A stretch of DNA of 64,000 nucleotides, taken from a phage. Every line of letters begins with the position of its first letter. The first letter of the stretch is position 1. The position numbers were made by a program, and so were the translations under genes. Below, piece by piece: positions 1-51,177 of the stretch. Where the stretch lies: the sequence record PZ402305.1; one strand, given 5' to 3'. The notes below the pieces were generated by a model, which worked only from the letters and a program-made list of their open reading frames with translations, made no database searches and was not told the origin of the DNA.

Positions 1-162
1 GTTGCCGCTATTGCTATTATTGGATCTTATTATGATACCCGTTTCCCGTCGGCTATGCATGAGGTCGCCGCCGTTGCATCAGTTGGCGTACTGTTTTACG
101 TTGGTAAACGCTATTTATCACCAATGATTAACAAGCTGACACCGTGGAAAAATAAAGGTTGA
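1..162 (+). CDS. 3' end of an upstream gene (partial), hydrophobic C-terminus
   Basis: Frame open from window edge to TGA at 160-162 (...VAAIAIIGSYYDTRF...LTPWKNKG). Confidence 0.3.
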   Translation, partial: VAAIAIIGSYYDTRFPSAMHEVAAVASVGVLFYVGKRYLSPMINKLTPWKNKG

Positions 163-214
163 TCCTGTTTTATATTGTGTTATAGTTATCGTGTAGGGCG
201 GCAATGGTGCCGCG
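159..214 (+). promoter_or_regulatory. PeSL-like cassette 1: TTGATC-N16-TATAGT promoter plus GTAGGGCGGCAATGGTGCCGC stem-loop
   Basis: -35/-10 hexamers with 16 nt spacer; hairpin GCGGCA/TGCCGC about 6 nt after -10; precedes ATG at 234. Confidence 0.55.
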
Positions 215-233
215 CCCCTTTGAGGATGCAATC

Positions 234-518
234 ATGAGTAAAGCTAACACCGTGCTAATGTTTTCCCTGATTAATGATCCCGCTTACTTGTCCAACATGA
301 CGCAGGAGGGTAACACATTAACGGCAACATTCACCAATAAGCTTGACCGAGTGATCATCATCTCACTGAAAACAGTTAGTAAAGGCTTTTACTCGTTAGC
401 TTATCATTGGATCACTGATACCGATGAGACAAGCCAGGACTATAGCGCCCCTTTCCCTGAATCAATGGCACGGGAGATCATCGCCGCCGTTGTAAATGAT
501 GGTTTGTTTACTGCATAA
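234..518 (+). CDS. hypothetical protein (94 aa)
   Basis: Track ORF 204..518 trimmed to internal ATG with GAGGA RBS; the track N-terminus lies inside the stem-loop. Confidence 0.5.
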   Translation: MSKANTVLMFSLINDPAYLSNMTQEGNTLTATFTNKLDRVIIISLKTVSKGFYSLAYHWITDTDETSQDYSAPFPESMAREIIAAVVNDGLFTA

Positions 519-533
519 AAATTTAGAAAAGGC

Positions 534-590
534 TTGCAATAATTTTGAGATAGTGTATATTTAATTCATAGGGCGGCGGGAATAGTTCCC
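534..590 (+). promoter_or_regulatory. PeSL-like cassette 2: TTGCAA-N16-TATATT plus TAGGGCGGCGGGAAtagTTCCC hairpin
   Basis: Same layout as cassette 1; precedes small ORF at 614. Confidence 0.45.
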
Positions 591-613
591 AAAGCAAACG
601 AGAGGATTACACG

Positions 614-733
614 ATGAGCAAGTACACAGTAGAATACACGGTAGAGAATCCGGCAGTATCCGAAGGTAAAAAGATGACATTTGCCATCAGTATAATCGCT
701 TTCGTTGTCACTATCTTATCAATCATCTTATAA
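614..733 (+). CDS. small membrane protein (39 aa)
   Basis: GAGAGGA RBS then ATG; single hydrophobic helix (FAISIIAFVVTILSIIL). Below track cutoff; coordinates read by eye. Confidence 0.4.
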   Translation: MSKYTVEYTVENPAVSEGKKMTFAISIIAFVVTILSIIL

Positions 734-743
734 GGTGCACACC

Positions 744-905
744 ATGAAAATAACAGACATTATCAAAGAGATCGCCCTTGCCGCTGGCGTTGAAGTCGAG
801 GAAGTGATCGCGCTCAATCTTACAGAAAACGATCTGCGCAACTATGAAGCGGAAAGCGTGAAAGCAAGCGGCGCGGTCCTGGTATATGATCCGGCTAACA
901 AGTAA
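744..905 (+). CDS. hypothetical protein (53 aa)
   Basis: Internal ATG of track ORF 705..905 preceded by AAGGTG. Confidence 0.4.
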   Translation: MKITDIIKEIALAAGVEVEEVIALNLTENDLRNYEAESVKASGAVLVYDPANK

Positions 906-1026
906 GGGGATAACATGAATCCGAAAGATATGCAAGCATGGAAAGGGTACGACGATCTAAGCGCCTTGCGCAATAAGTCAAGCCGTAACCTTAGACGGTT
1001 GGAAGCAAAGAAAAAGAAAAAATAGT

Positions 1027-1082
1027 TTGACAAGTCCGCGTAGTCTGATAATATGTATCTTGTAGGGCGGCAATGGTGCCGC
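1027..1082 (+). promoter_or_regulatory. PeSL-like cassette 3: TTGACA-N16-TAATAT plus GTAGGGCGGCAATGGTGCCGC
   Basis: Consensus hexamers; stem-loop identical to cassette 1; precedes ATG at 1104. Confidence 0.6.
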
Positions 1083-1103
1083 TCACAAGAAGAGAGAAAA
1101 ATC

Positions 1104-1388
1104 ATGAAAATTACAAAAAGCCTAACTAATTATGCAGCACGTCGCGGATTATGTTTAACCGTTGAAAACTTAGGGAAAGAAGACTTTTTGTGTTTTTGGG
1201 AGCTTGAAAATGATTGCGAGTGGATGTTTTCTTATTCTATCTGCGAAGATCAAAACGGTTGTTTGTTAACCTGGCGCGGTAATATCTATTTACCGGAAGA
1301 AATCAAAGAGGAACTACCAGGCACGATCATGACTGAGAAACAGCTTAAGGAAGTGATCAATTTTGTAGGGCAAAACATTAAAAAATAA
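1104..1388 (+). CDS. hypothetical protein (94 aa, Cys-rich)
   Basis: Track ORF 1053..1388 trimmed to ATG after purine-rich RBS. Confidence 0.5.
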   Translation: MKITKSLTNYAARRGLCLTVENLGKEDFLCFWELENDCEWMFSYSICEDQNGCLLTWRGNIYLPEEIKEELPGTIMTEKQLKEVINFVGQNIKK

Positions 1389-1389
1389 T

Positions 1390-1452
1390 TTGACAGTAGG
1401 CAAACAACGTAGTAAAGTTTATTACATAGAGCGGCGGAATGGTCCACCGCTC
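1390..1452 (+). promoter_or_regulatory. PeSL-like cassette 4: TTGACA-N17-TAAAGT plus GAGCGGCGG/CCACCGCTC hairpin
   Basis: Same promoter then stem-loop layout; precedes ATG at 1474. Confidence 0.5.
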
Positions 1453-1473
1453 ACAACAGAAGAGAAACAAATC

Positions 1474-1644
1474 ATGATCCCGACTATGTTTTATGTATCG
1501 CGCAAAGGTCACAATATTTTTTGGTCTGAAGATTTAAATGAAGCTATGACGTTTGCCCGTAATCGTGTTGCTATCGGTGGCGTTAACATCACCGTAACCG
1601 ATGAAAATGGCATTGAATACTATAACGGCGACGATGAAGAATAA
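1474..1644 (+). CDS. hypothetical protein (56 aa)
   Basis: Internal ATG of track ORF 1390..1644; the track N-terminus overlaps the promoter cassette. Confidence 0.45.
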   Translation: MIPTMFYVSRKGHNIFWSEDLNEAMTFARNRVAIGGVNITVTDENGIEYYNGDDEE

Positions 1645-1837
1645 TTAATGAGGCGGGGGGAGTATTCCCCGCCGTCAATATGGCGGGGCAATAAGGCAAC
1701 GCCCATTAATGAGGGTAAAATCATGTTAGAGAAAATTTTCACGGTTGCAGTGGTTGGCCTGGCGTTATCGGTTGGAGTGGTTGCAACTATGGCTAACATG
1801 ATCCTATCTTCCCACGGTATCGGTTAAGGTGAAACAA

Positions 1838-2053
1838 ATGATCACGAACAAAACAGGCAAAACGGAATTTTTACGCGGCTTACAAGTTGGTAAGCCTGAG
1901 ATCTGGCATTGCACGAAGTCCGCGCATAATGAAATGAAAGATTTCACCGCTACTTTACAACGTGTTAAAATATCTATTACACAGAAAAAAGCCTTGTTAG
2001 TAGTAGAAAACGAGATCCCACAAACTATTATTATTGTCGAGCGTACAGCATGA
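1838..2053 (+). CDS. hypothetical protein (71 aa)
   Basis: ATG 6 nt after AAGGTG; track start is an upstream GTG. Confidence 0.45.
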   Translation: MITNKTGKTEFLRGLQVGKPEIWHCTKSAHNEMKDFTATLQRVKISITQKKALLVVENEIPQTIIIVERTA

Positions 2054-2436
2054 AAACAGAAATCATTATTGAAATCATCAACGGCTATAAAGAAGCTTTT
2101 ATTTTTGCTGAATCAGCAAGGGATCATGAAGGTAATTTTATTGATAACTTAGACGATTATGATTTTTCTCCTAGCGCGGACGAACGGATCGCCCAGGATG
2201 TAACAGCCTTTATTAATGCTAATCTTGCCGCTATCTCTGAGGCAATGAGCGACGGCGCAACAGCCAACCAGATCGGGAATGATTTACATTTTACCCGTAA
2301 CAGTCACGGCGTAGGCTTTTGGGATCGCCCTGAAATATACACCACTAACACGGCGAACCGCCTAACCAATGCAGCTAAGTTTATGCCGAACGTGTCGGCT
2401 TACATTGGTGAAGATAATTTGATTTATATTGAATAA
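2050..2436 (+). CDS. hypothetical protein (128 aa)
   Basis: ATGA start/stop overlap with upstream gene (translational coupling). Confidence 0.5.
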   Translation: MKTEIIIEIINGYKEAFIFAESARDHEGNFIDNLDDYDFSPSADERIAQDVTAFINANLAAISEAMSDGATANQIGNDLHFTRNSHGVGFWDRPEIYTTNTANRLTNAAKFMPNVSAYIGEDNLIYIE

Positions 2437-2442
2437 AAAGTA

Positions 2443-2498
2443 TTGACACAGATCGCCAGTGTGCTAATATTTACCACGTAGGGCGGCAATGGTGCCGC
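2443..2498 (+). promoter_or_regulatory. PeSL-like cassette 5: TTGACA-N16-TAATAT plus GTAGGGCGGCAATGGTGCCGC
   Basis: Identical architecture to cassette 3; precedes ATG at 2520. Confidence 0.6.
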
Positions 2499-2519
2499 TC
2501 CCCGAAAAAGGTAAACATT

Positions 2520-2711
2520 ATGGAAACCATCTCCTACCTGGAATCGAATAACATGTTTTTTGCGCCCGTTGATGAAATCATCGAAGCATTAAACAACGAG
2601 GAAGGGATCAAAGGTTTATCTTATAGCCAACTTTTAGGAATGGTTGCAGCAAATGAAGAGCTTGCTTACTATGTTGAAAATTTTGATGAAGCTGTAATCT
2701 TTACAAAATAA
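2520..2711 (+). CDS. hypothetical protein (63 aa)
   Basis: Track ORF directly downstream of cassette 5. Confidence 0.5.
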   Translation: METISYLESNNMFFAPVDEIIEALNNEEGIKGLSYSQLLGMVAANEELAYYVENFDEAVIFTK

Positions 2712-2714
2712 TCC

Positions 2715-2771
2715 TTGATCTAATCTCTTAGATAACTTATATTTAATGCGTAGGGCGGCAATGGTGCCGCC
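2715..2771 (+). promoter_or_regulatory. PeSL-like cassette 6: TTGATC-N17-TATATT plus GTAGGGCGGCAATGGTGCCGCC
   Basis: Precedes ATG at 2790. Confidence 0.55.
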
Positions 2772-2789
2772 GATAATGAGGAAAGTAAA

Positions 2790-3089
2790 ATGGAAACTAT
2801 CGCTATTGTTACCGTAGAAAAACTGGTTGTTGGTGATGTATTCGCGTTAATGGTGCCTAACAGCAGCAAACTGGGCGCTTATGAAGTAATGGATCATAAA
2901 AATGAATCATTTGGCGACGGTTGCACAATGGCGGTAAAATCTTTAAAGGATGGAATCATCCGCCAGGCTAACTGGCACAAAGGGAATCAAGTCGGTTTAA
3001 TATCAGCTAATTTCTTGCCAGAAGAGCAAACGTTAGACCAACTATCAGGCGGTAAGACGTTAGCCGAGCTACTGGAAACAGCGATCTAA
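2790..3089 (+). CDS. hypothetical protein (99 aa)
   Basis: Track ORF downstream of cassette 6. Confidence 0.5.
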   Translation: METIAIVTVEKLVVGDVFALMVPNSSKLGAYEVMDHKNESFGDGCTMAVKSLKDGIIRQANWHKGNQVGLISANFLPEEQTLDQLSGGKTLAELLETAI

Positions 3090-3097
3090 TCAACAAA

Positions 3098-3113
3098 GGG
3101 GCGGCAACGCCCC
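3098..3113 (+). other. intercistronic RNA stem-loop with GNRA tetraloop (GGGGCG-GCAA-CGCCCC)
   Basis: Perfect 6-bp GC stem, no U-tract; a second similar hairpin (GGGCG-GTAA-CGCCC) sits at about 3383-3396. Confidence 0.4.
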
Positions 3114-3133
3114 ACATCAGAAAGGAAAAGATT

Positions 3134-3370
3134 ATGAGTATTGCAACAGTATTAAACGCCGTTAAAACCGCTGAATCATCCGGCTTGCATGTTGAGCTTA
3201 TAGATCAACCAGGTGGCGATCTCCTTGTCCAGGTTTACCCGCCGAAAGTAGGGGATGATCATTATTGGTGCTATTCTGATACGTTCGAACAAGTAGACAC
3301 GAAAGCGATCACGGCTTTTATTTTAAAAGCTATTGAAGAAAATAACTTTCATTATAACATCAATCAATAA
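3134..3370 (+). CDS. hypothetical protein (78 aa)
   Basis: Track ORF. Confidence 0.45.
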   Translation: MSIATVLNAVKTAESSGLHVELIDQPGGDLLVQVYPPKVGDDHYWCYSDTFEQVDTKAITAFILKAIEENNFHYNINQ

Positions 3371-3427
3371 ACTTTAAGCAGGGGGCGGTAACGCCCTATT
3401 AAACGCAATAGGAAGAGGATAGAAAGC

Positions 3428-3718
3428 ATGAAAAAGATGATCGCAGTAGTTGCCCTGGTTGTTGGTATTAACGCGCCTGTAATGGCTAATGATTTGCCTG
3501 AATCCATCGCGTTAACCGATATCAACGCGGTAAACCGGATCGGCGTTAATTATCGCCTATGCCTTGCCGCTAAAACTTTCCAGGACGGCACGACAGAATA
3601 CCACGGATTCGAGGGTGTCCGGTGCGGTGAGCTTGCACGCGACCTTAAGGAAGATCCAGACCTTGAGGCCATACCGATGACCGTAAACGGTAAAGCTTAC
3701 GTAAACCGCCAACAATGA
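3428..3718 (+). CDS. hypothetical secreted protein (signal peptide)
   Basis: N-terminus MKKMIAVVALVVGINAPVMA resembles a Sec signal peptide. Confidence 0.5.
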   Translation: MKKMIAVVALVVGINAPVMANDLPESIALTDINAVNRIGVNYRLCLAAKTFQDGTTEYHGFEGVRCGELARDLKEDPDLEAIPMTVNGKAYVNRQQ

Positions 3719-3729
3719 GAAAGGTAATC

Positions 3730-3957
3730 ATGACAATGGGGATCATAGTAGCAACGCTGGCGCTGATCCCCTTCCTGGTTGAATATGTGCTGATTAGTGT
3801 TGTCCTGGTAGTCAGTGACTTATTGGAAACGGTTGGCACCTGGGAGCAGGGGAAGATAATCACCGGACGACCCCGCTATATATTGATAGCTAACATCTAT
3901 CAAACAACAAAACATCAAAGAGATAAACTATCAAATCTTTACAATCCTACCTATTGA
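3730..3957 (+). CDS. hypothetical membrane protein (75 aa)
   Basis: Internal ATG after GAAAGG RBS; two hydrophobic segments. Confidence 0.45.
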   Translation: MTMGIIVATLALIPFLVEYVLISVVLVVSDLLETVGTWEQGKIITGRPRYILIANIYQTTKHQRDKLSNLYNPTY

Positions 3958-4012
3958 CACCGGATCACGCTTACATTATCATTTATCACGTAGGGCGGGA
4001 ATGTTTCCCGCC
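3954..4012 (+). promoter_or_regulatory. PeSL-like cassette 7: TTGACA-N16-TTATCA plus GTAGGGCGGGAAtgtTTCCCGCC
   Basis: Precedes ATG at 4031. Confidence 0.5.
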
Positions 4013-4030
4013 TGATTTAGGAGTCATATC

Positions 4031-4264
4031 ATGATCGAACAAATTAAAAGCACTAAACCAAATGTTAACGGTAATGTTTCTCACTTTATCGGGGATAATG
4101 AAAGAGGTACACCGTACGCCGCCGTAACCGTTCAACCGAACGGGGATTATTGGTTTACCGTGTACGGATCTTACTCTTTTGGACGTTCGGCACATGATAA
4201 GATCTTGCAAGTGGTTAAGCCTACTGGGAAGAATATCACAGCAGAAAAATTTTATAAAAAATAA
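4031..4264 (+). CDS. hypothetical protein (77 aa)
   Basis: Track ORF. Confidence 0.5.
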   Translation: MIEQIKSTKPNVNGNVSHFIGDNERGTPYAAVTVQPNGDYWFTVYGSYSFGRSAHDKILQVVKPTGKNITAEKFYKK

Positions 4265-4265
4265 C

Positions 4266-4325
4266 TTGCTTTATAGCTCCTGTTAACTTATAGTTATTGC
4301 GTAGGGCGAGCAATACAGCAAGCCC
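4266..4325 (+). promoter_or_regulatory. PeSL-like cassette 8: TTGCTT-N17-TATAGT plus GTAGGGCG leader
   Basis: -35 region reads TTGCTTTA (MotA-box-like); conserved GTAGGGCG follows -10; precedes ATG at 4343. Confidence 0.45.
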
Positions 4326-4342
4326 ACAAAGAGGAAAAGAAG

Positions 4343-4711
4343 ATGAGCAAATCAGCAATTAAAGCACTTGAAAAAGCACAAGAAGTGATCGCAACGTCAA
4401 CCACTGGCGCAAAGGTTAATCTCGTTGGTTATCTGACAGATGAAACTATCCGTAAAAATTGGCGTAATGCTGATTTACTGGCTTGCTTATTGATTAATAG
4501 TGTCGCTAATGCTTTCCAGTGTGAAACAGCCGAGAGCCTGGAGGAAAACTTGTTTGATAATATGGATCAAGCCATTGAAACCTATATACAATCAAACATG
4601 GATAGCTGGAACAGTAAAACATGGCCCGACAATTTACGCGATACAACTGATCAACTGATCCGCCTTGCCTTGATGGTTGAACGCGATAACGTTCACAACC
4701 GCACAAAGTAA
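4343..4711 (+). CDS. hypothetical protein (122 aa)
   Basis: Track ORF with AAGAGGAAAAG RBS. Confidence 0.5.
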   Translation: MSKSAIKALEKAQEVIATSTTGAKVNLVGYLTDETIRKNWRNADLLACLLINSVANAFQCETAESLEENLFDNMDQAIETYIQSNMDSWNSKTWPDNLRDTTDQLIRLALMVERDNVHNRTK

Positions 4712-4721
4712 GATTATACAA

Positions 4722-4748
4722 GGGGCGCACCAAGCGCCCTTTCTTTTT
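4722..4748 (+). terminator. rho-independent terminator
   Basis: GGGCGC-accaa-GCGCCC stem-loop followed by TTTCTTTTT. Confidence 0.7.
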
Positions 4749-4749
4749 G

Positions 4750-6360
4750 CCCGAATAATGTTGATAGATTCCGCCTATGGAAAACCGACACAGAACAAAA
4801 CTGAATAAATAGCGGTATCGAGCTAATCAACCATTAAACGAATAACCATACCTCCCAGGGTAACAGGCTGTTAGAGAGCCATTTAGAGCGGTTAAAATCG
4901 ATCAACAACCAACAAAAAACCATCAAAAACACCCTTTTACCTCCTTTCTAGTGCAATGATAACCATTATCATCTATCCATGTTTATCTATGCAATATAAG
5001 TGCATAACTATAATGTTGATAATAGTTCGCAACAACTAACTAACCAACAACCTAAAACAATAAGCAAACTAATCATAATCAAAGGAATAATAGCAAGATG
5101 ATTGATAACGACAAACAATCAAACCATGATGAATACTAAGCAAGATAACGATAACACGACAAAACAACCAACTAACGAACAATAACAAACGAAACCATTA
5201 AAATAATAACTATTAGCAAAATAGTGCCTGAATGAAATCATTACAAAACGAATCATTCACAGGATCATCATTAGCACGCTATGCCGGACACATAGCGAGC
5301 TAATAATAAGCCAACTACACCCCAACAATCATAACCATCGGTGATGGTTATTTCTTGTTACTGCGTAGCTTGCAATAATTGCAAGCGTAATACGCTTACA
5401 CTTATTGCGCTGGCTTATTATTAGCATTATATGTAATTACCAAGATCATAACATTAGCGCAATAACAATAATCATTGTGGTAATTACAAGATGAAATAAT
5501 CGCTATCGCTCAAAGATCATTAGCAAGATGAATAATTGCACGTAGCAACATGAGCGAATAGCGACAGGTTGCATAGTGTGCACATAGATGTACACGTAGT
5601 GTATAAACATACAGGAAAATAAAGGCTAATCTTTTGGGGGCGAATACTATCGCGTAGCGATATGTTGAGCACTAAGAGAAGAGATAAACCTTAATCATGG
5701 GGGCGTAAATATCCGCAGGATTGCCAACGGCGATCCGGTAGGATGTTGAGCATCTTCTCTTAAACGTAAATAAAATCAGAAAATTCTTGATTTATTTTAG
5801 TTTTTATGTTAATAAACGTTTAAATAATAATCATTCTCATATGAATAATAGTCTGCTTGTCATGAGCGGGATCAGTTGACAATGTTCCGTCATATGATGA
5901 AGTTGCCAAACCATTGATAAATAAGTGTTTGTGTGATTTATAATCAAGTGGCCCACCTTGTCGCTATGTTGGCATGAGCCTTGCATAAGTCATTGAATAC
6001 GAATGATAATTATTCTCATTCGCATGATATTTGAGAATTGTCGCTGCGTGGACCTGACGGCCCGAAAATTCGCGTTAAGCACTTCTTACGTATGCGCCAT
6101 GATTTTTGCCATATGATATTGATTCTATTAGATATTCTTGCCATGATTGCCATGAAACAGGGTGTCCCGAAATAATCTCTCCCCGTAGATATTTTGGGTT
6201 ACTTTTTATACAAGAGTGGGGTGTCAAAAATAATCGGTATATATGGGATAATTGATAGGAATCCCCTATGATAATTCGATTGTAATTCCCTGAGATTGAT
6301 CGTATGATGTTGGTGATTGATGATTGCCATGAAAGATGGCTAACAATGAGAGGAGATTAT
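4750..6360. other. 1.6 kb ORF-free, repeat-bearing non-coding region
   Basis: No ORF of 60 aa or more on either strand; C+A-rich top strand at 4750-5550; short direct and inverted repeats at 5600-6340. Confidence 0.5.
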
Positions 6361-14089: not shown

Positions 14090-15979
14090 TGGCTGCTTAT
14101 AATTGGTATGAACTTGAAGCTGTTTGTCAGTTTTATGACTCAATAGTTCTGCGTGATCCAATCTGTCAAGAATTGAGTCGCCGTGCAAGTGCATTGGCAA
14201 TCCGTGTTAAAATAAACGGTTGGAACGCAGATTTGGAAAAAGAGTTGGAATTTCTCTTAGAAAACACGCGGGTCTTCCGCAAAGTGTTCCCTGAATGGTT
14301 TGAGATGGAAGAATGATCATGTGGATTGTGCGTCTTAAGTATGATGGCCCTAATCCTTGGGTGAGAACAGTTTGCGGATGTGATACTAAAGAGTCAGCAG
14401 ATAAAGCTGGAAGAATGATAAGTGCCTTTTATAATAGTAAACCTCTTTGTTTAGAAATGTCTGGTGTGGTTTGTATGAGCATGTTCGAATACTACTCTTA
14501 TGAGATCAAAGAACACCAAGGGGAATGGAAATAAATAGTTGACAGAAGGATCTGTCTTTGTCATAATCATCTCATCGAAACAAAGAGGAGAAAATCATGA
14601 AAAAGTTTATTTGCACCCGTTCCACTAACAGTGATATCCTTGTAGGTAAGGTTATCAAAGGAGAACTCTTCCATGCAAACGGTAAGAAATATATTTTGCT
14701 GAAAGATTCTTTCAACGGGGAATATCCGCGCTGCACTTTCTTCAATTACAACACTCCATTTGCTTTAGAAGGAGATGCTTGGGACTGGGCTGAACTCAAT
14801 CCTTGTTGTGAGGAAGAAGAATCTATGTTCTTGGGTTTAAACGTTTACCGTGTAGATTACACCATGTGCGGAGCGGAACATTCTGTTCGCGTAGAAGCCG
14901 AATCCAAACTACAAGCACCTTTCAAGGCGGGATTGACTTTGGGTCATTGTTTGGCAAACATTGAAGATGTTGTGATCCAAAGGGTTGTTTTAGAGAAAGA
15001 GGCTATTTGAGAGAAGACGGCACAATATTTAAATATAAAGATTAACCACAAAGGAGATAGATATGCAAGTTGAAGACCTGATCAAAATTTTGAATGAAGC
15101 CAAAGAGAAAGGTGCTATCAAAGACTGGAAACGTGAAACAAGTGAAGATCTATCTCACTGTTGCCGAGAATTTTACATCGAAGGTATTGCTGACGATCAT
15201 TATATTATCGAATGGTATATCAACTTAATGACTCTTAAGCACGGTTCGTTTGAGGTTTGGTTTGATGACATTGATGTAAATGGTTTTCATCCTGGCTATA
15301 AAATCGCTATGCAGTTATCTTATCGTAGAGAAGTTGTAGCACATTTAGGTTTACATAACTAAGGAGAAAAGAATGCAAGCAGTTGTTAACGAAGCTATTA
15401 TGAACTTATCCTTCTTGTTAGCTGGTTTAGGAGGTGTTCTCATAGGTTTGGCTCTTATCTGGTGTATTCGTCGATTAATCGGGTACCGACAAAAAGGTGT
15501 TTCATGTTTTGTATCTTACAATTTTACAACTGCTTACAGCAATGAAGTTGGATCTGGCAATGCTCAAGCATTTTTACCAACATATCCTCCTACGGTGGAA
15601 GATATTCGAAACTTGGAAGTAGAACTTATGGGACTAAGTGATAACTATACATCTCTAGTTATTCAAAATATTTTTCGACTAAAACAGGAGGCGTGAATGA
15701 AGGTACATTACCCTCATCCATTTGATCCTAAAAACAAAGCCGTAATTCTTCGTCAGTGGCAACGGGTTTGTCGTACTAAATGTCCAATCAATAGCCCACA
15801 CAATGTAGACAAGGACTATCTTGGGACATTTGTTGAATACACTTACATAGACAAAAACAAGCGTAAACAACATGTCGAGGAATACTGCTTAAGAGTAGAA
15901 TGGCTGTAAATAATAAATACCTTGACAAGTGTTTATTCGTTTTGTAAAGTGAGAATACAGCAATGGTTTAGGAGTGGTT

Positions 15980-16651
15980 ATGAAAAAGTTTGTTGTTTAC
16001 AGTCGTCTTTCTAAACAGAAAAAAGGTGAGGCACAATATGGTATGGAGAGCCAAGAGAATGATATCCGTTACTTCTTAGACTCTGTGCCTGATGCGGAAG
16101 TTATTGGTCAATTTTCTGAATACTATTCGGGTAAGGGCGATTGGAAGCAACGTAAGGAACTGGTTAAAGCGGTTGAAATGTGTAAAGCTACCGGAGCAAC
16201 TTTATTGGTAGCTAAAGTTGACCGCTTGGGTCGTAATAACGCCTCCGTAGCAACTCTTCTAGAAATGATTGATGTTAAGATAGCCATCATGCCAGACGCA
16301 GATAAAATGGTTATACAGCTTCTGTCTGTTCTGGCTGAACAAGAAGTTAGAGGTATTGCTGATCGTATTAAAAAGGGTCTTGCTGTAGCAAAAAGCAAAG
16401 GTGTTTTATTAGGCAGTGCCAATCCTAAAACTGCCGCTGCACGTAGAAAAGGAAAAATGGAATACAACTCTGTTAAAGCAGACGCTTTTGCAGAGACATT
16501 CCGTGAACGCTTGGAGATCCTTAGAGATTTAAATACACCTTACAAAACTATTGCTGAAAAATTCAATAGTAAGAAAATAGCAACAGCACGTGGTGGTAAA
16601 TGGGATGCTAAAACTGTTTCTCGTTTGTGTGCCAGACTGAACATTAAATAG
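15980..16651 (+). CDS. serine recombinase (resolvase/invertase family) with C-terminal HTH
   Basis: VVYSRLSKQ (catalytic Ser motif), LLVAKVDRLGRN, C-terminal TIAEKFN...ARGGKW; TTGACA-N17-TAAAGT promoter upstream. Confidence 0.6.
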   Translation: MKKFVVYSRLSKQKKGEAQYGMESQENDIRYFLDSVPDAEVIGQFSEYYSGKGDWKQRKELVKAVEMCKATGATLLVAKVDRLGRNNASVATLLEMIDVKIAIMPDADKMVIQLLSVLAEQEVRGIADRIKKGLAVAKSKGVLLGSANPKTAAARRKGKMEYNSVKADAFAETFRERLEILRDLNTPYKTIAEKFNSKKIATARGGKWDAKTVSRLCARLNIK

Positions 16652-22817: not shown

Positions 22818-22839
22818 AACCCGCTTCGGCGGGTTTTTT
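22818..22839 (+). terminator. rho-independent terminator
   Basis: CCCGC-TTCG-GCGGG followed by TTTTTT. Confidence 0.7.
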
Positions 22840-27542: not shown

Positions 27543-27566
27543 TAAAAAACCCGCCGAAGCGGGTTA
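27543..27566 (-). terminator. rho-independent terminator (minus strand)
   Basis: CCCGC-UUCG-GCGGG plus T-run on the minus strand; promoter follows immediately. Confidence 0.65.
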
Positions 27567-28074: not shown

Positions 28075-28354
28075 TAGTATTTCTCCTCTGGTTGGAAAAC
28101 GGAACGACAGGCCCACATAGAAGCTTCTTTCAACTTAGTCTTTGCTATTGAAATTTGGTCAAGGCGGGTGGATATATTGGTAGACTCTTCCAAATCTTCA
28201 CAATCATCCAGTTCAGCCCACAATTCAGACATTAGAGCATCAAAGATTAATCCTAATCGAACTTCAGCATCTTTAATAGCATTCACTTTACCAATTTTGT
28301 CATCGGTATGCGGTTTATAACCTTTGATATCTTCGATTCCCACTTTACCTCCTA

Positions 28355-31856: not shown

Positions 31857-32562
31857 AACTACTCCTCGGATCATTCTACCAAAGAGAATTCCGCCTCTTC
31901 CAGGTAGATTACAGACCTTGTTGCATGATATTTAACGCTCCAGAAATTACCTTCGCGCCGTAAAAGTATCTCATTCACATCAAGATTGCTTAGAAAAACC
32001 ATATAACTTAAAGCTTGTTGACGCGTTGAGAATTGTTTCTCTAAAAGTTCTTCTCCGCTCTGCATAATCCCTCCTTAAAATACTCCCTCCGAAAAGGGAG
32101 TATAAGTATATCACGTAGTTGTTATGTTGTCTTCTTGGATTCTAGAATCCACTTCTGCAAACATATCTTCTGCACTGTAATTATTTCCAGTCCAGCGTGA
32201 TAAAAGGATAGCACCAATCTCTTTTGCATGAGATTCGGACTCCGCATAAACGTTAGTCCCAGTGTCACCTTTTTTCTTTTCATGTGCATAAATGCAGTAA
32301 TAATTGTAAGCCATTAATCTTCCCAGTCATTGCCCTCGGTAGAGTGAACTAAAGCTCGCACGATACCACCGTAATCTACTGCCTGATTTGCAGCATGTTC
32401 GGCATAAACTTCAATGGCTTTTTTGAAGAAAAGAGCAGTAGCTGCTTCAATATTATCCATTTCGCCATCTACGTCAGTAGAAAGTGAAAGGTTGAGGCTT
32501 TCATCTACTTCATCAAAATCAATAGCCACTGTCATAATTAGTTTACCCATAGTTCACACTCC

Positions 32563-46401: not shown

Positions 46402-46977
46402 CTAACTTTCAATTTCCTGCAATAGGATTTTGACTATTTGTTTACGGCGTTTTGCTACTGTGCTTTCAGGTTCTATTTTACGCTTCTTCAGCCACGCTTT
46501 ATCTTTCTTAGCTCTACACAAAGCTATCGCTTCTTTTTCAGCTTTTGCTTCTTCAAAAGATATGCCTTGCTTGTCTGCATAAGCAAGAATAGAGTTGCAC
46601 AATTTACAAACCATTCGCAAATCTTCTTCTTTCACATAGATCAAACGGAAAACAAAAAGGGGAATATCCTCAAAACATTGAAGTTGTTTTGCTGCGTGAA
46701 TATGATCCACTTGGAAGTCTTTCATTCCTCCTCTGTGTCCACATATTTCGCACTCACAATTCCAAACTTGTTTTGGTTTTCCAGTTTTCTTGTCTATCAT
46801 CACATTGCCGTCTTTATCTACACGATCAACTTTAAAACGCCTTGCATTGATAACCTTAATTTTATTAGGGTGTCTCATCCATGCTTTTCTAAAACATCCC
46901 CTAAGATAAGTATAAAATTCAGCTTGTGTTTTCCAGGGTGTTCCTTCACCCCACATTATTTTTGGTTCACCTGCCAA
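46402..46977 (-). CDS. HNH endonuclease (free-standing)
   Basis: CECEICGH...DHIH. Confidence 0.7.
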   Translation of the reverse strand: MAGEPKIMWGEGTPWKTQAEFYTYLRGCFRKAWMRHPNKIKVINARRFKVDRVDKDGNVMIDKKTGKPKQVWNCECEICGHRGGMKDFQVDHIHAAKQLQCFEDIPLFVFRLIYVKEEDLRMVCKLCNSILAYADKQGISFEEAKAEKEAIALCRAKKDKAWLKKRKIEPESTVAKRRKQIVKILLQEIES

Positions 46978-47538
46978 TATTGCTCACCTTTTTAGCTGTA
47001 TATTCCCCTGGTGGGATATTGTGTTTAAAAAACAAAAGGCGGTCTAACCCCGCCTTGCACATTGTTTCTGGAATAGTCAAAGTTAGTAAAAGTTTATCAC
47101 CTTTTCGGTTGAATATTTTATAAACTTCTCCTGCTCCATATTGTTTAGTATTGCTCGCCACTAATACGTTCCTTAAGTTGTTTAATAGCTTCGATTGCAT
47201 CTACATAAGAAGAGTTATACATGTGTTTCAGTGCTACTCGTACTAAAGGATCTTTTGTGAAGAAATCAATAAGAAGCATAGCTTGATCATGTTTAGCTGC
47301 ATTTGTCATAGATGGATAATTTTCACGAACCATATACGTGTTATTTTGCATAAGGGTTCTTTCTAGTTCAATACAATGAATAGCTTTATCTAGGTTAATC
47401 TGACGTTCACCTTTAATACGTGTTGCGTATTTTGCCAATTTGCAAAAACAAGGTGTGCCACCAACCAAATAAGCTAGTTCAATAGGTTGCATTGCCATTT
47501 TTGTGTAGTGATCACCGTCAACCTGATTATCAAAAGCA

Positions 47539-47852: not shown

Positions 47853-48812
47853 TTAGATTCCAATGATAGTTGCTGCTCGTTTATCCTTGGATCTAGTGTT
47901 TGCTCTACTACGTGACAAACCGCCGCAAGATTCACAACGAATGATATCGAAAGAACTTACCGCAGTGTGGTATTGTTTACCAGTAACAACGTGAACGTGA
48001 TCACTACCACAACGAGAACAACGGACCTTCTCATCTGGGTAATAAGCGGATAAGTTAGGATGCTGTGGAATCCACGGAAGGATTTTCATATACAAATCAC
48101 GGAGTGAAACAACATCACCATCATTGTAAATCTGCATACGTTCAAAAGCATCACGATCACCTTCACAACATGCTTTCCATAAAGGGAACCCCTCGTTATC
48201 CAGTTTTTCACTTTCTGTTTCGAAATATGCTCCCATTTCTTTAAGGGAGTTGGAAGGAAGTGCAAATTGTTTCTTAGCTGCCTTCAATGTATCAACAACT
48301 ACATAATTAGAAGGAGGAGCCATATCGTGATATGCAAATCGTTGGTTAATGTATGCACGGTCAAACTTATATCCGTTGTGTGCCACAACTACATCTGCCT
48401 CGTTCAGAAGGTTCCAAAGATCTTGGCAAAGCTCCCAATCATCTGTATGATCAATATCAAAAAGAGGATAAGAAGACAAGTTCTTACCTTCCACTTCACC
48501 AGTATACAGGTCAGCAGAAGAGTAGGATAACAAATAACCTCTGCGAATTACCTGGTCTGGAGAAATGAAGGCTTTGAATCGACGGAAAGTATATGCAATC
48601 TCTGGTGCAGTTTCAACATCAATAATTTTAATAACTGGTTGTTTCTTTTTAACTGGCTCTTGTTTACTTGCACCGAAACGTGCAAGGAAATCATTTACTG
48701 TGCTTTTTCTTGTTGGACTACCTAAAACAATTGCTGCAATATTACGAGAAGACATACCCTCTGCACTCATACTAAGGATATCTGCTTTCTGCTCTTCTGT
48801 TAATCTGCTCAC
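47853..48812 (-). CDS. DEDD-family 3'-5' exonuclease with N-terminal HTH-like and C-terminal Cys cluster
   Basis: IIDVETAP (Exo I), VVAHNGYKFD (Exo II), YNDGDV (Exo III); CSRCG...CESCG. Confidence 0.7.
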   Translation of the reverse strand: MSRLTEEQKADILSMSAEGMSSRNIAAIVLGSPTRKSTVNDFLARFGASKQEPVKKKQPVIKIIDVETAPEIAYTFRRFKAFISPDQVIRRGYLLSYSSADLYTGEVEGKNLSSYPLFDIDHTDDWELCQDLWNLLNEADVVVAHNGYKFDRAYINQRFAYHDMAPPSNYVVVDTLKAAKKQFALPSNSLKEMGAYFETESEKLDNEGFPLWKACCEGDRDAFERMQIYNDGDVVSLRDLYMKILPWIPQHPNLSAYYPDEKVRCSRCGSDHVHVVTGKQYHTAVSSFDIIRCESCGGLSRSRANTRSKDKRAATIIGI

Positions 48813-49927
48813 TCTGCCTCCTGTTGTGAGATGTATGACTGAAGCATACTCTCAAATGTTGTATCGTCATTATCCCAGCGTTTCATGTATACCAACTGGA
48901 AAATTGTTTCTATCCATTCATCTGTTGTCATATGGACTTCTTCTCCATCCCAAGAAGTAAAATTAACACCATCTGGGAACCATGAGTAGTAAGTATCTTT
49001 AACTGTTTGGAAAAGTTCTGCTTGAGTTTTACAAGCTGAAAGAAGATTAAAACAAGTAATATCTCCGAACTTAATATCAAAATCTTGATAAGGTCGGATA
49101 CTATCTGTTTTATCTCCCATTAGCATCTGATATGCTAACCAGTAACTGCCCCAACCTTTAACTTCTTTCTTTTTACCTTTATCTACGATCCATATATCGC
49201 CAATAGACTCGTCAATAAGAATTATATCTGGATTTTTAAATACTCCATCCTCTTTGTAGAAATTAAAAAGGATACTAGGAGTATGTAAACTATCTTTATC
49301 TATAGATACTACGATATAAGAAAATTTACCCGTCCTTTTATAATCTTTATAACCTTGGAAACCATACTTCTCTAACTCATCATCAGCTTCTATTACAGTA
49401 ACAACATCACCATTGTGGAACTCCACAAGATAATCTTTGGTTTCTGAAAGCTGAAGTGGTTTGATATCTAATCGTTCAGATTTATATTCTACAGGCATTT
49501 TGAAGGCGTGTCTGAAAGTTTTTCCTACGCCAATAACTCCGCAATATTTTTCTAAACGTAGATGTTTTAGAATACCTAAGACTTTTGTTTTAGCTGCTTG
49601 GAAGGTGTGTCCGATATCTTCTGGCGGGTATTGCTTATCAATGATTTCGAACTCTTCCTTTGTGAAGGGACGTTTGTTTTTGGAGGCTCTTTCTGCATTT
49701 GTATCTCCTAGCCAACCTCCAATTTTAGTCTTGCTTTTACCCCAAAACTCTGTCTTATTTTTAAATTCCTTTTGAGCACCTGAAGGGATGTGCTTCGCAA
49801 TGATTGTTCTTTTCTCTAATGCAGACGCTGCTTGGAAAGCGATCTGATCATAATCAATTGCAGCTATTGTTTCTTCATTGACATATAAATGAAGATCTTC
49901 AGGTTTAATTAAAATATAACCGCTAAT
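48809..49927 (-). CDS. rnh: 5'-3' exonuclease / flap endonuclease (T4 RNase H-like); start codon non-canonical and uncertain
   Basis: EADDELEKYG, SIDKDSLH, GDKTDSIRPY; frame open 147 codons upstream of the first ATG (49498) with a T4 RNase H-like N-terminus (TIAAIDYDQIA). Confidence 0.7.
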   Translation of the reverse strand: MSGYILIKPEDLHLYVNEETIAAIDYDQIAFQAASALEKRTIIAKHIPSGAQKEFKNKTEFWGKSKTKIGGWLGDTNAERASKNKRPFTKEEFEIIDKQYPPEDIGHTFQAAKTKVLGILKHLRLEKYCGVIGVGKTFRHAFKMPVEYKSERLDIKPLQLSETKDYLVEFHNGDVVTVIEADDELEKYGFQGYKDYKRTGKFSYIVVSIDKDSLHTPSILFNFYKEDGVFKNPDIILIDESIGDIWIVDKGKKKEVKGWGSYWLAYQMLMGDKTDSIRPYQDFDIKFGDITCFNLLSACKTQAELFQTVKDTYYSWFPDGVNFTSWDGEEVHMTTDEWIETIFQLVYMKRWDNDDTTFESMLQSYISQQEAE

Positions 49928-50221: not shown

Positions 50222-51177
50222 TTATTTAAGGATTGTTGCTTTGGTTAAATCTTCCATCAGACCTCGAATCTCATTGAAGCACAGAAGGACTGAAGCTTCA
50301 ATACTGCCTTCTTCGTCTGCAAAATATTTCGGAAAACGTAGTTTAGAAAGTTTAAACTCTTTATCCACTACGAAATCTACAACACCGTCATATTCAAGAC
50401 CGATTGCAACAACATCTTTACCATCTTCTTTTAGTTCGACAGCTTTAGACTCGTATAGGGATTCTTTACTCCAAACAACAACGCCCTCGCTATCCTCCAT
50501 TTTGATATAATTTCCGAGAGTAATACGATCTGCTTCGTGATTCTCCAGCAATTCACCAAAACCTTTCACAATAGCTTCTTCATGCACACTAAAACCTACC
50601 GAAGGGAAAGTCCCCAGAACGGAACGGAGGAAAGAAGTAATCTCTTCTGCAACCTTTTTACTTCCATTAAGAACATAAAGAAGATTCGTAGTTTTATCCA
50701 AGACAACATAGTTAAAGAAATCTTCAGGTTCTGTTTCAGGCAATAGTGCAAATTCAATATCTTCCTTCATTGCTTTGACTACTTCTTTATCGACATAAAA
50801 CTCTTTACCTTCGCTCTCCATGTCCTGACGCATTTCTTTTCCTTCATTGCTTTGACTACTTCTTTATCGACATAAAACTCTTTACCTTCGCTCTCCATGT
50901 CCTGACGCATTTCTTCTAGCCGTTCATTCAGAATACGTTTAACTTTCTTTTTATCTACCTTCTTCACAGATTGACCTACATTAAGCAGTTCAAGATCTGA
51001 AAACTCTTTTACAAATTTAGAGTCATCTTCGAAACGAACAAGACCGATAGTGTGTGACTGGGAGCCTTCTGCTGTTACAAATTCCAGAGGAATATCTGTA
51101 ATGCTGTTAAGGGATGCTACAGAAGCATTGTCGCCAACAACCATAGGCAGAGCGGATTTAAAAGATTTTACAAACAT
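50222..51177 (-). pseudogene. gene split by a perfect 77-bp tandem duplication (track ORFs 50222..50833 and 50779..51177)
   Basis: Both ORFs encode MRQDMESEGKEFYVDKEVVKAMKE from copies 77 bp apart; removing one copy restores one frame of about 292 aa. Confidence 0.55.

Follow-up and report, generated by a model that had tools for sequence, protein, structure and literature searches.

We analyzed a 64,000-nt window of phage DNA (sequence record PZ402305.1; positions below are those of this window unless another genome is named) and found that the gene at 15980–16651 (+ strand, 223 codons plus the stop) appears, as judged from its sequence, to encode an intact and catalytically competent small serine recombinase. 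The gene is near-universal in the Stephanstirmvirinae, the virulent myoviruses related to phAPEC8 and phi92, and is vertically inherited in this subfamily. The pattern of its variation points to strong purifying selection. The coding sequence was assigned from the open reading frame (ORF), a Pfam match, an alignment of homologues, and a structure model. As to what the enzyme does, we tentatively favor a role in resolving or circularizing the phage's DNA.

The window belongs to the genus Phapecoctavirus: it is 99.2% identical to phAPEC8 over 21–46 kb, and it is collinear with phage ASO2A throughout and 99.4% identical to it around the recombinase gene. Phages of this group have been described as lytic, with linear genomes that have short direct terminal repeats (PMC6563267, PMC12695924), and a terminal repeat of 328 bp has been reported (PMC6563267). 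The two ends of the Schickermooser record are 100% identical over 329 bp, and mapping them to the window placed the direct terminal repeat of the packaged genome at 5749–6077. The recombinase gene lies about 10.2 kb from this physical left end (5749), amid small early genes on the + strand. This agrees with a sequence-only reading of the same DNA, which had assigned a small serine recombinase to the early genes of a lytic phage. Among the neighboring genes, only DUF7202 and PHROGs of unassigned function were matched, and PADLOC gave nothing.

The start codon is ATG 15980, rather than GTG 15974 where the ORF lister opens the gene, because homologues begin with MKKF and because a ribosome-binding site, AGGAG at 15970–15974 (+ strand), can be read directly from the sequence 5 nt ahead of the ATG. 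The catalytic domain together with helix E makes up residues 1–139 (15980–16396, + strand) and is identified by its match to the Pfam family Resolvase (PF00239; residues 5–142, E = 5e-18), by invariant residues, and by structural matches. Both of the motifs that the sequence-only reading had picked out are present, YSRLS (Y7-S-R9-L-S11) and VDRLGRN (with D81, R82, and R85). In an alignment of 27 homologues (29–81% identity), Y7, R9, S11, Q25, R58, D81, R82, R85, and E120 are invariant, so on close inspection the catalytic serine, Ser11 (codon 16010–16012), is intact. D81 (whose codon begins at 16220), R82, and R85 (16232–16234) align with the LDRLGR motif of the Tn3 and gamma-delta resolvases, where the equivalents in gamma-delta resolvase are D67, R68, and R71.

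The same alignment was given to AlphaFold2, and the resulting model (mean pLDDT 88.5) has a catalytic domain, a long helix E (109–139), and a C-terminal domain of four helices (149–172, 175–183, 188–197, and 210–219). This predicted DNA-binding domain spans residues ~149–219 (16424–16636, + strand) and contains the motif IAxxFNxxKIATARGGKWxxxTVSRL. A C-terminal helix-turn-helix had been expected from the sequence and is present in both the AlphaFold2 model and profile comparisons, but it is of the large-serine-recombinase type and not of the Hin/resolvase type. Pfam gave only PF00239 and a weak match to PF07508 ("Recombinase"; residues 187–216, 18.2 bits, under the 21.1-bit cutoff); no Pfam family for a Hin/resolvase-type helix-turn-helix was matched. 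Positions 116–216 of the family's profile align, through helix E and the beginning of the recombinase domain, with residues 140–244 of the SPbeta integrase SprA/YokA (E = 0.0018). Longer multi-domain relatives bear PF20552 (HTH_62, "recombinase-like helix-turn-helix"), and relatives carry PF20552 or PF07508. What the C-terminal domain resembles is the opening portion of the "recombinase domain" found in large serine recombinases.

By sequence, the solved structures found were Tn3 and gamma-delta resolvase (single-sequence E ~1e-6). By structure, Foldseek ranked the large serine integrase Bxb1 first, followed by the catalytic domains of Sin, gamma-delta, and TP901-1. The best PHROG family is phrog_125, labeled "DNA invertase," and NCBIfam gave only sub-threshold matches (YneB, XisF, Mpi, and CcrB). 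The phage protein is like Tn3 and gamma-delta resolvase, Sin, Hin, and Gin in its catalytic domain, helix E, Ser/Arg/Asp set, size, and possession of a C-terminal DNA-binding domain. It differs from them in that this domain has four helices instead of three, in that its N-terminal loop has a longer "S..Q....G..SQ" spacing, and in that no res or inverted crossover sites were seen adjoining the gene; its sequence similarity to the solved members is also low. Likewise, it resembles the integrases of Bxb1, PhiC31, TP901-1, and SPbeta (SprA) by the Foldseek match to Bxb1, the SprA/YokA alignment, and the weak PF07508 match, but these large serine recombinases exceed 400 amino acids, and the 223-residue phage protein has neither the remainder of their recombinase domain nor a zinc ribbon or coiled coil. 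Nor did we find for the phage enzyme anything of their attP/attB logic, or integrated copies. We rejected an assignment to the IS607-type serine transposases: these have an N-terminal MerR-like helix-turn-helix and then a C-terminal catalytic domain, which is the reverse of the domain order here (catalytic domain at 1–139, DNA-binding domain at the C terminus).

The same architecture is common: a search at E ≤ 1e-10 matched 2,542 cluster representatives. Of the 150 top-scoring ones, most are 215–245 amino acids long and align over residues 1–220 of the query. The phage protein aligns over its full length, through both domains, with NCBI's "recombinase family protein" group (~215–245 amino acids, Resolvase plus recombinase-like helix-turn-helix).

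To describe the distribution of the gene, we used tblastn and found the recombinase in 163 phage records. Of these, 63 are of the Phapecoctavirus type, with amino acid identities of 99% or more, and the 21 top records listed are at 100%. Identity falls to 74% in phiWec181 and phiWec188, 67% in Tr1, 57% in phi92-like phages, and 55% in Klebsiella phages; beyond the subfamily, it is 35–39% in Vibrio phages of 128–137 kb and 30% in some isolates of ICP1. Recombinase-bearing records of Stephanstirmvirinae are about as numerous as those that match the tail module. Also, an index of public assemblies has the exact 223-residue protein in 884 blocks, and among the 24 contigs that were read, the neighboring genes were the same in all ten of the places shown.

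We then compared 12 loci: ten from the assemblies, the window, and ASO2A. The recombinase ORF has 36 variable nucleotide sites and no amino acid changes, a count that is partly built in, as an exact match to the protein was what brought up ten of the 12 loci. Each flanking gene has 5–7 variable residues. Strong constraint is also indicated by the GenBank counts at 99–100% identity and by the comparison of the window, ASO2A, and UP17, in which all seven differences within the gene are synonymous. A 114-residue antisense ORF (16123–16467, – strand) lies within the recombinase gene and is open in phi92 too, at 63% identity; conservation of the sense strand most likely accounts for it.

A sigma-70-type promoter lies just upstream of the gene, at 15922–15950 on the + strand (TTGACA at 15922–15927, a 17-nt spacer, and TAAAGT at 15945–15950; 10/12 in a consensus scan). 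The match had been noted before, and taken alone it carries no weight, because promoter-like matches in this AT-rich region (39) are no commoner than expected from shuffled sequences (37.9). But a promoter of the form TTGACx-N16/17-TAnnnT is found 25–45 bp before the start codon in all seven of the lytic-phage homologues that we examined, which include those of phiWec181, Citrobacter phage Tr1, phi92, Klebsiella phage phi1_175008, Vibrio phage 1.170.O, and an ICP1 isolate. From this conserved position, we take the gene's own early promoter to be real.

The reaction that we favor is of the resolution or deletion type, between directly repeated copies of one site on the phage's own DNA. We regard this as possible rather than probable: it is our preferred guess, held with low confidence, and it is close to the role in resolving concatemers that was among the suggestions of the sequence-only reading. 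The enzyme would be transcribed early, by the host's RNA polymerase, from its own sigma-70 promoter, and it would then recombine two direct copies of a single site. If the site lies in the 329-bp terminal repeat, these copies would be on the two ends of the genome: because the repeat is terminal, any site within 5749–6077 is present twice, in direct orientation, in each linear genome, and the recombinase may use such a site. Alternatively, the copies would be on neighboring units of replication multimers. Either reaction would produce circular monomers. For comparison, Cre/lox can cyclize the DNA of phage P1, and Cre is a tyrosine recombinase. The paper describing phage SKA64 suggests that the enzyme keeps concatemers as single genomes (PMC10282059).

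This proposal is an analogy with the relatives of the enzyme that are encoded by plasmids. We found full-length homologues of 35–40% identity on 109 plasmids. Several of these plasmids are non-mobilizable, are 5.8–6.4 kb in size, and carry little beyond replication or partition (Rep/Par) genes, with the recombinase gene beside them. Two of them have 650–680 bp of non-coding DNA upstream of the recombinase gene. In the Klebsiella aerogenes plasmid NZ_CP118334 (5.8 kb), there is a 16-2-16 dyad 34–67 bp upstream of the gene for a 36%-identical recombinase (p = 0.001). This 34-bp dyad, TATCATTTGTTTGCCG-AA-CGGCAAATTTATGATA at 4323–4356 of the plasmid, is a candidate crossover site for the protein family. 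A non-coding stretch and a dyad upstream of the recombinase gene are the layout of a classical multimer-resolution system, and the plasmid relatives are presumably multimer-resolution enzymes.

Several points weigh against resolution as the function of the phage enzyme. First, no recombination site was found: the dyads upstream of the gene in the phages are marginal and not conserved, and there is no repeated dyad family in the genome. When dyads with a 2-bp center upstream of 11 homologues were compared with shuffled sequences, they were marginal in three phages and clear only in the one Klebsiella plasmid. In the window, a weak 12-2-12 dyad at 15912–15937 (AATAAATACCTT-GA-CAAGTGTTTATT; 9 of 12 arm pairs match) overlaps the -35 hexamer; it reaches only p ~0.06 against shuffled sequences, its position is not kept in phiWec181, and it has no second copy in the genome. 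It is a possible lead for an operator or a crossover site. Second, the non-coding gap upstream of the phage gene is 70 bp, versus about 650 bp for the plasmid relatives, and because it is so short, it does not accommodate a three-subsite res. Third, T7 and other phages whose terminal repeats are short do not circularize in order to replicate, which leaves the need for such an enzyme unproven. Fourth, the analogy to the plasmids spans just 35–40% identity, and the role of the plasmid genes is itself conjectural. The built-in part of the zero count of amino acid changes belongs here as well. Finally, six small indels fall within the first 250 nt of the gene's copy in Schickermooser (MK373788, 11303–11952), of which just the 3' part is annotated. 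Either the phage is viable with a pseudogene here, or the indels are sequencing errors; if they are real, then a phage can grow without the recombinase in the laboratory.

We also considered a dedicated lox-like site, located either in the terminal repeat or in the 1.6 kb of gene-free DNA next to it, at which the enzyme would circularize or monomerize the genome early in infection, or else a target in the DNA of the host or of a competitor. We think it rather doubtful that one or the other of these is correct. If true, either use would be a case of site-specific recombination in the lytic cycle that is undescribed for this group of phages.

Another explanation is that the promoter and the recombinase form a selfish, moron-like single-gene cassette that spreads between phages and is of no benefit to them. 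In support of this, the gene has changed its location between clades. A gene-by-gene comparison of ASO2A with VEcB, of the sister genus Justusliebigvirus, showed that they are collinear over the whole 150 kb with two exceptions, which are a 1.5-kb inversion at 138.7–140.2 kb of ASO2A and the recombinase gene. In phi92, VEcB, and Klebsiella phage phi1_175008, the recombinase is in the middle cluster of – strand genes, between gp054 and gp052. The homologues of these two genes in the window are at 32111–32314 (gp054) and 31871–32065 (gp052), and in Phapecoctavirus the gap between them holds only a terminator. The Phapecoctavirus recombinase is instead in the early region, after the DUF7202 gene, and the early region is also its location in phiWec181 and Tr1. 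The unit that moved, which is ~730–750 bp in both places, comprises the promoter, the ribosome-binding site, and the ORF, and it sits between unrelated genes at each locus. Homologues are also found in unrelated Vibrio phages, in an accessory region of some ICP1 isolates, in prophages, and on plasmids.

On balance, we think that the selfish cassette is unlikely. One relocation is sufficient to explain the locations across the whole subfamily, because the two groups of recombinases follow the two clades of phages; this suggests a single ancient move rather than an actively hopping element. No genome or assembly that we saw departs from the fixed position, purifying selection appears to be stronger on the recombinase than on the neighboring genes, and we saw no terminal repeats or scars at the borders of the unit at either locus. 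Thus, the idea that the gene marks a mobile cassette, which the sequence-only reading had raised, survives only in a weak, historical sense: the locus differs in the clade of phi92 and the Klebsiella phages but is fixed within each clade.

It is somewhat less plausible that the enzyme's target is DNA foreign to the phage (for example, that of the host chromosome, a resident prophage, a satellite, or a plasmid) and that its function is in host takeover or in an attack on competitors. This would fit with our finding no site in the phage genome, with early expression from a host-type promoter, and with the location of the ICP1 homologue in a variable accessory region. On the other hand, we found no positive evidence for such a target, no PADLOC match, and no precedent in the literature.

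A DNA invertase that flips a segment of the phage genome (tail-fiber genes or a promoter), as Gin, Cin, Hin, and Pin do, seems improbable. Several records, including phi92 (gene_053), label the gene as an invertase, as does the best PHROG family, and distant homologues in prophages (37–43% identity) adjoin tail or baseplate genes. However, the C-terminal domain is not of the Hin/Gin type, and we found no invertible segment. An inverted-repeat search of the window and self-BLAST of the full 151.7-kb genome of the near-identical ASO2A gave no pairs of inverted repeats of at least 18 nt apart from terminator hairpins, the repeated promoter-hairpin unit of the early region, and an 18-nt palindrome. 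An enumeration of imperfect palindromes in the genome found no family with two or more related members except for Fur-box-like motifs. These searches bear out the earlier impression that there are no att-like or inverted-repeat sites near the gene, and they do not support its suggestion of an invertible segment elsewhere. We also looked for orientation polymorphism among ~66 Phapecoctavirus genomes, with queries that covered about half of the genome. Three regions gave a clean reading: 21–46 kb of the window, the tail-fiber region (79–100 kb), and 136.8–142 kb. Each record had a single place of match in all three regions, and the variation consisted of replacements and indels instead of inversions. 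The remaining query, with 1–25 kb, could not be read cleanly, with many records beginning inside it and with its repeated promoter units.

Three candidates for invertible or recombining segments were examined and rejected. A perfect 22-nt inverted pair (AACCCGCTTCGGCGGGTTTTTT, at 22818–22839 and 27544–27565) consists of terminator hairpins at both places in ASO2A, and the 4.7 kb between them is flipped in no related genome. The inversion at 138.7–140.2 kb of ASO2A is the only one between the genera, and its orientation is fixed within Phapecoctavirus. The 17-nt inverted repeats that flank the homologue in a Vibrio phage were judged to be a chance similarity between ribosome-binding sites. As an aside on the inversion between genera (ASO2A 138138–140699), three to four small genes (138696–140171) are inverted relative to 75086–76026 of VEcB, and they are flanked by two oppositely oriented ORFs, both of which match 76047–76697 of VEcB.

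Even less probable is that the protein is a DNA-binding regulator that no longer recombines, for instance an autorepressor of its own promoter: the marginal dyad does overlap the -35 hexamer, but the catalytic residues are invariant across 29–81% identity, and a pure DNA-binding protein would not need them. We dismiss an integrase that permits a hidden lysogenic or carrier state, despite the membership in the serine recombinase superfamily and the C-terminal domain's relation to large serine integrases, given that the 1.7-kb region around the gene has no match in any of 5,426 complete genomes of E. coli, that a protein of 223 amino acids is too short to include the zinc ribbon and coiled coil that serine integrases use, and that the phages have been described as growing lytically and as having no matches among prophages (PMC10282059).

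We also recorded several features of the genome's ends. The terminal repeat lies within a 1.6-kb gene-free region (4750–6360) that is A/C-rich on the + strand to ~5560. Many database records begin within this region, and it is partly conserved with 90.2–92.5 kb of Justusliebigvirus VEcB; it had no match in an Rfam search. Upstream of the repeat, at 5267–5434, is a structured element with a predicted RNA folding energy of -60.1 kcal/mol, versus -36.9 ± 3.9 for shuffled sequences (z = -6.0). The predicted fold consists of three hairpins inside an outer stem. Conservation with VEcB is 81%, and six base pairs are kept via changes on both sides. The element could be a small RNA, or it could be a DNA structure for replication or packaging. 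We rejected its hairpins as half-sites for the recombinase: odd-sized loops and co-varying arms are more in keeping with a nucleic acid that folds. We also rejected a conserved dyad that lies 24 bp into the terminal repeat (5772–5796), which has an odd center and no other copy in the genome; this dyad is more likely to be a packaging signal than a recombinase site.

Copies of an 18-bp dyad, AATGATAAnnATTnTCAT, are found at 4955–4972, 5823–5840, and 6002–6019 of the window and also at 145976–145998 of ASO2A. Two copies of this type are inside the terminal repeat, and the sister genus keeps the motif at all three of these positions, with AATGATAATCATTATCA as one of its copies. The dyad is a close likeness of the E. 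coli Fur box, and such dyads near the genome ends may provide iron-responsive control. We rejected these 18-mers as recombinase sites because they fit the host's Fur consensus in the two genera alike, despite a 43% difference between the recombinases.

A unit that is present more than ten times in ASO2A consists of a sigma-70 promoter (TTGACA...TAAGAT) and, directly after it, a GC-rich hairpin (GTATCACATAGGGCGG...CCGCTCACAACAGAAGAGAG). Examples are at 240–295, 1278–1342, 1758–1830, and 2160–2193 of one ASO2A locus (L004) and at 46912–46984, 47274–47339, 48350–48420, and 49673–49742 of another (L006), and part of this region corresponds to 1–4750 of the window. The annotation of ASO2A describes them as pairs of a promoter and a terminator, and one copy, at 123.9 kb, is reversed.

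Two other genes in the window drew our attention. First, a perfect 77-bp tandem duplication (50762–50915; 2.0 copies, 100% match) lies within an RdgC-like gene and breaks it into two ORFs on the – strand, 50222–50833 and 50779–51177; ASO2A has a single gene of 879 bp. The 203-residue RdgC-like ORF matches positions 93–294 of the 298 in Pfam's RdgC profile. Second, a small ORF at 28077–28346 (– strand) encodes an Acb2/Tad1 hairpin domain (PF24729, E = 1.3e-19), and its DNA matches genes of T4-like phages, one of which is annotated as "Acb2-like anti-CBASS protein."

The recombinase gene has been annotated in many ways. Public records describe it as "serine recombinase" (UP17 and Ro121c4YLVW), "DNA invertase" (gene_053 of phi92, and SF1-1), "resolvase" (ESCO13), "putative recombinase" (SKA64), or "recombinase family protein," and in many records it is a "hypothetical protein." Some records, such as 3A1_SA_NWU, 10C3_SA_NWU, and Mt1B1_P17 (RefSeq NC_052662.1), wrongly label it as "methionine ABC transporter ATP-binding protein," and for AV125 this label is listed within the 1.7-kb region around the gene. 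ESCO5 and ESCO37 have been said to encode no recombinase (PMC10269720). Contrary to this, tblastn shows that both of them carry the gene. In the literature, we found mentions of this recombinase at the level of annotation and no experimental work on it.

The existence of the gene and its family assignment were already known from public records. Our analysis adds the assignment of its domains, its status as a core gene and how constrained it is, its one relocation, the finding of neither inversion nor integration in the searches made, and the analogy to plasmids. The 100% identity of the protein across dozens of isolates and hundreds of assemblies argues that a lytic phage must gain something from it. 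Use in phage therapy and biocontrol is often proposed for Phapecoctaviruses, and a recombinase gene is flagged by screening tools as a possible sign of a temperate lifestyle. Because this recombinase is a core gene of a virulent lineage, has none of the additional domains of serine integrases, and is absent from the 5,426 E. coli genomes, we argue that it is not a marker of lysogeny.

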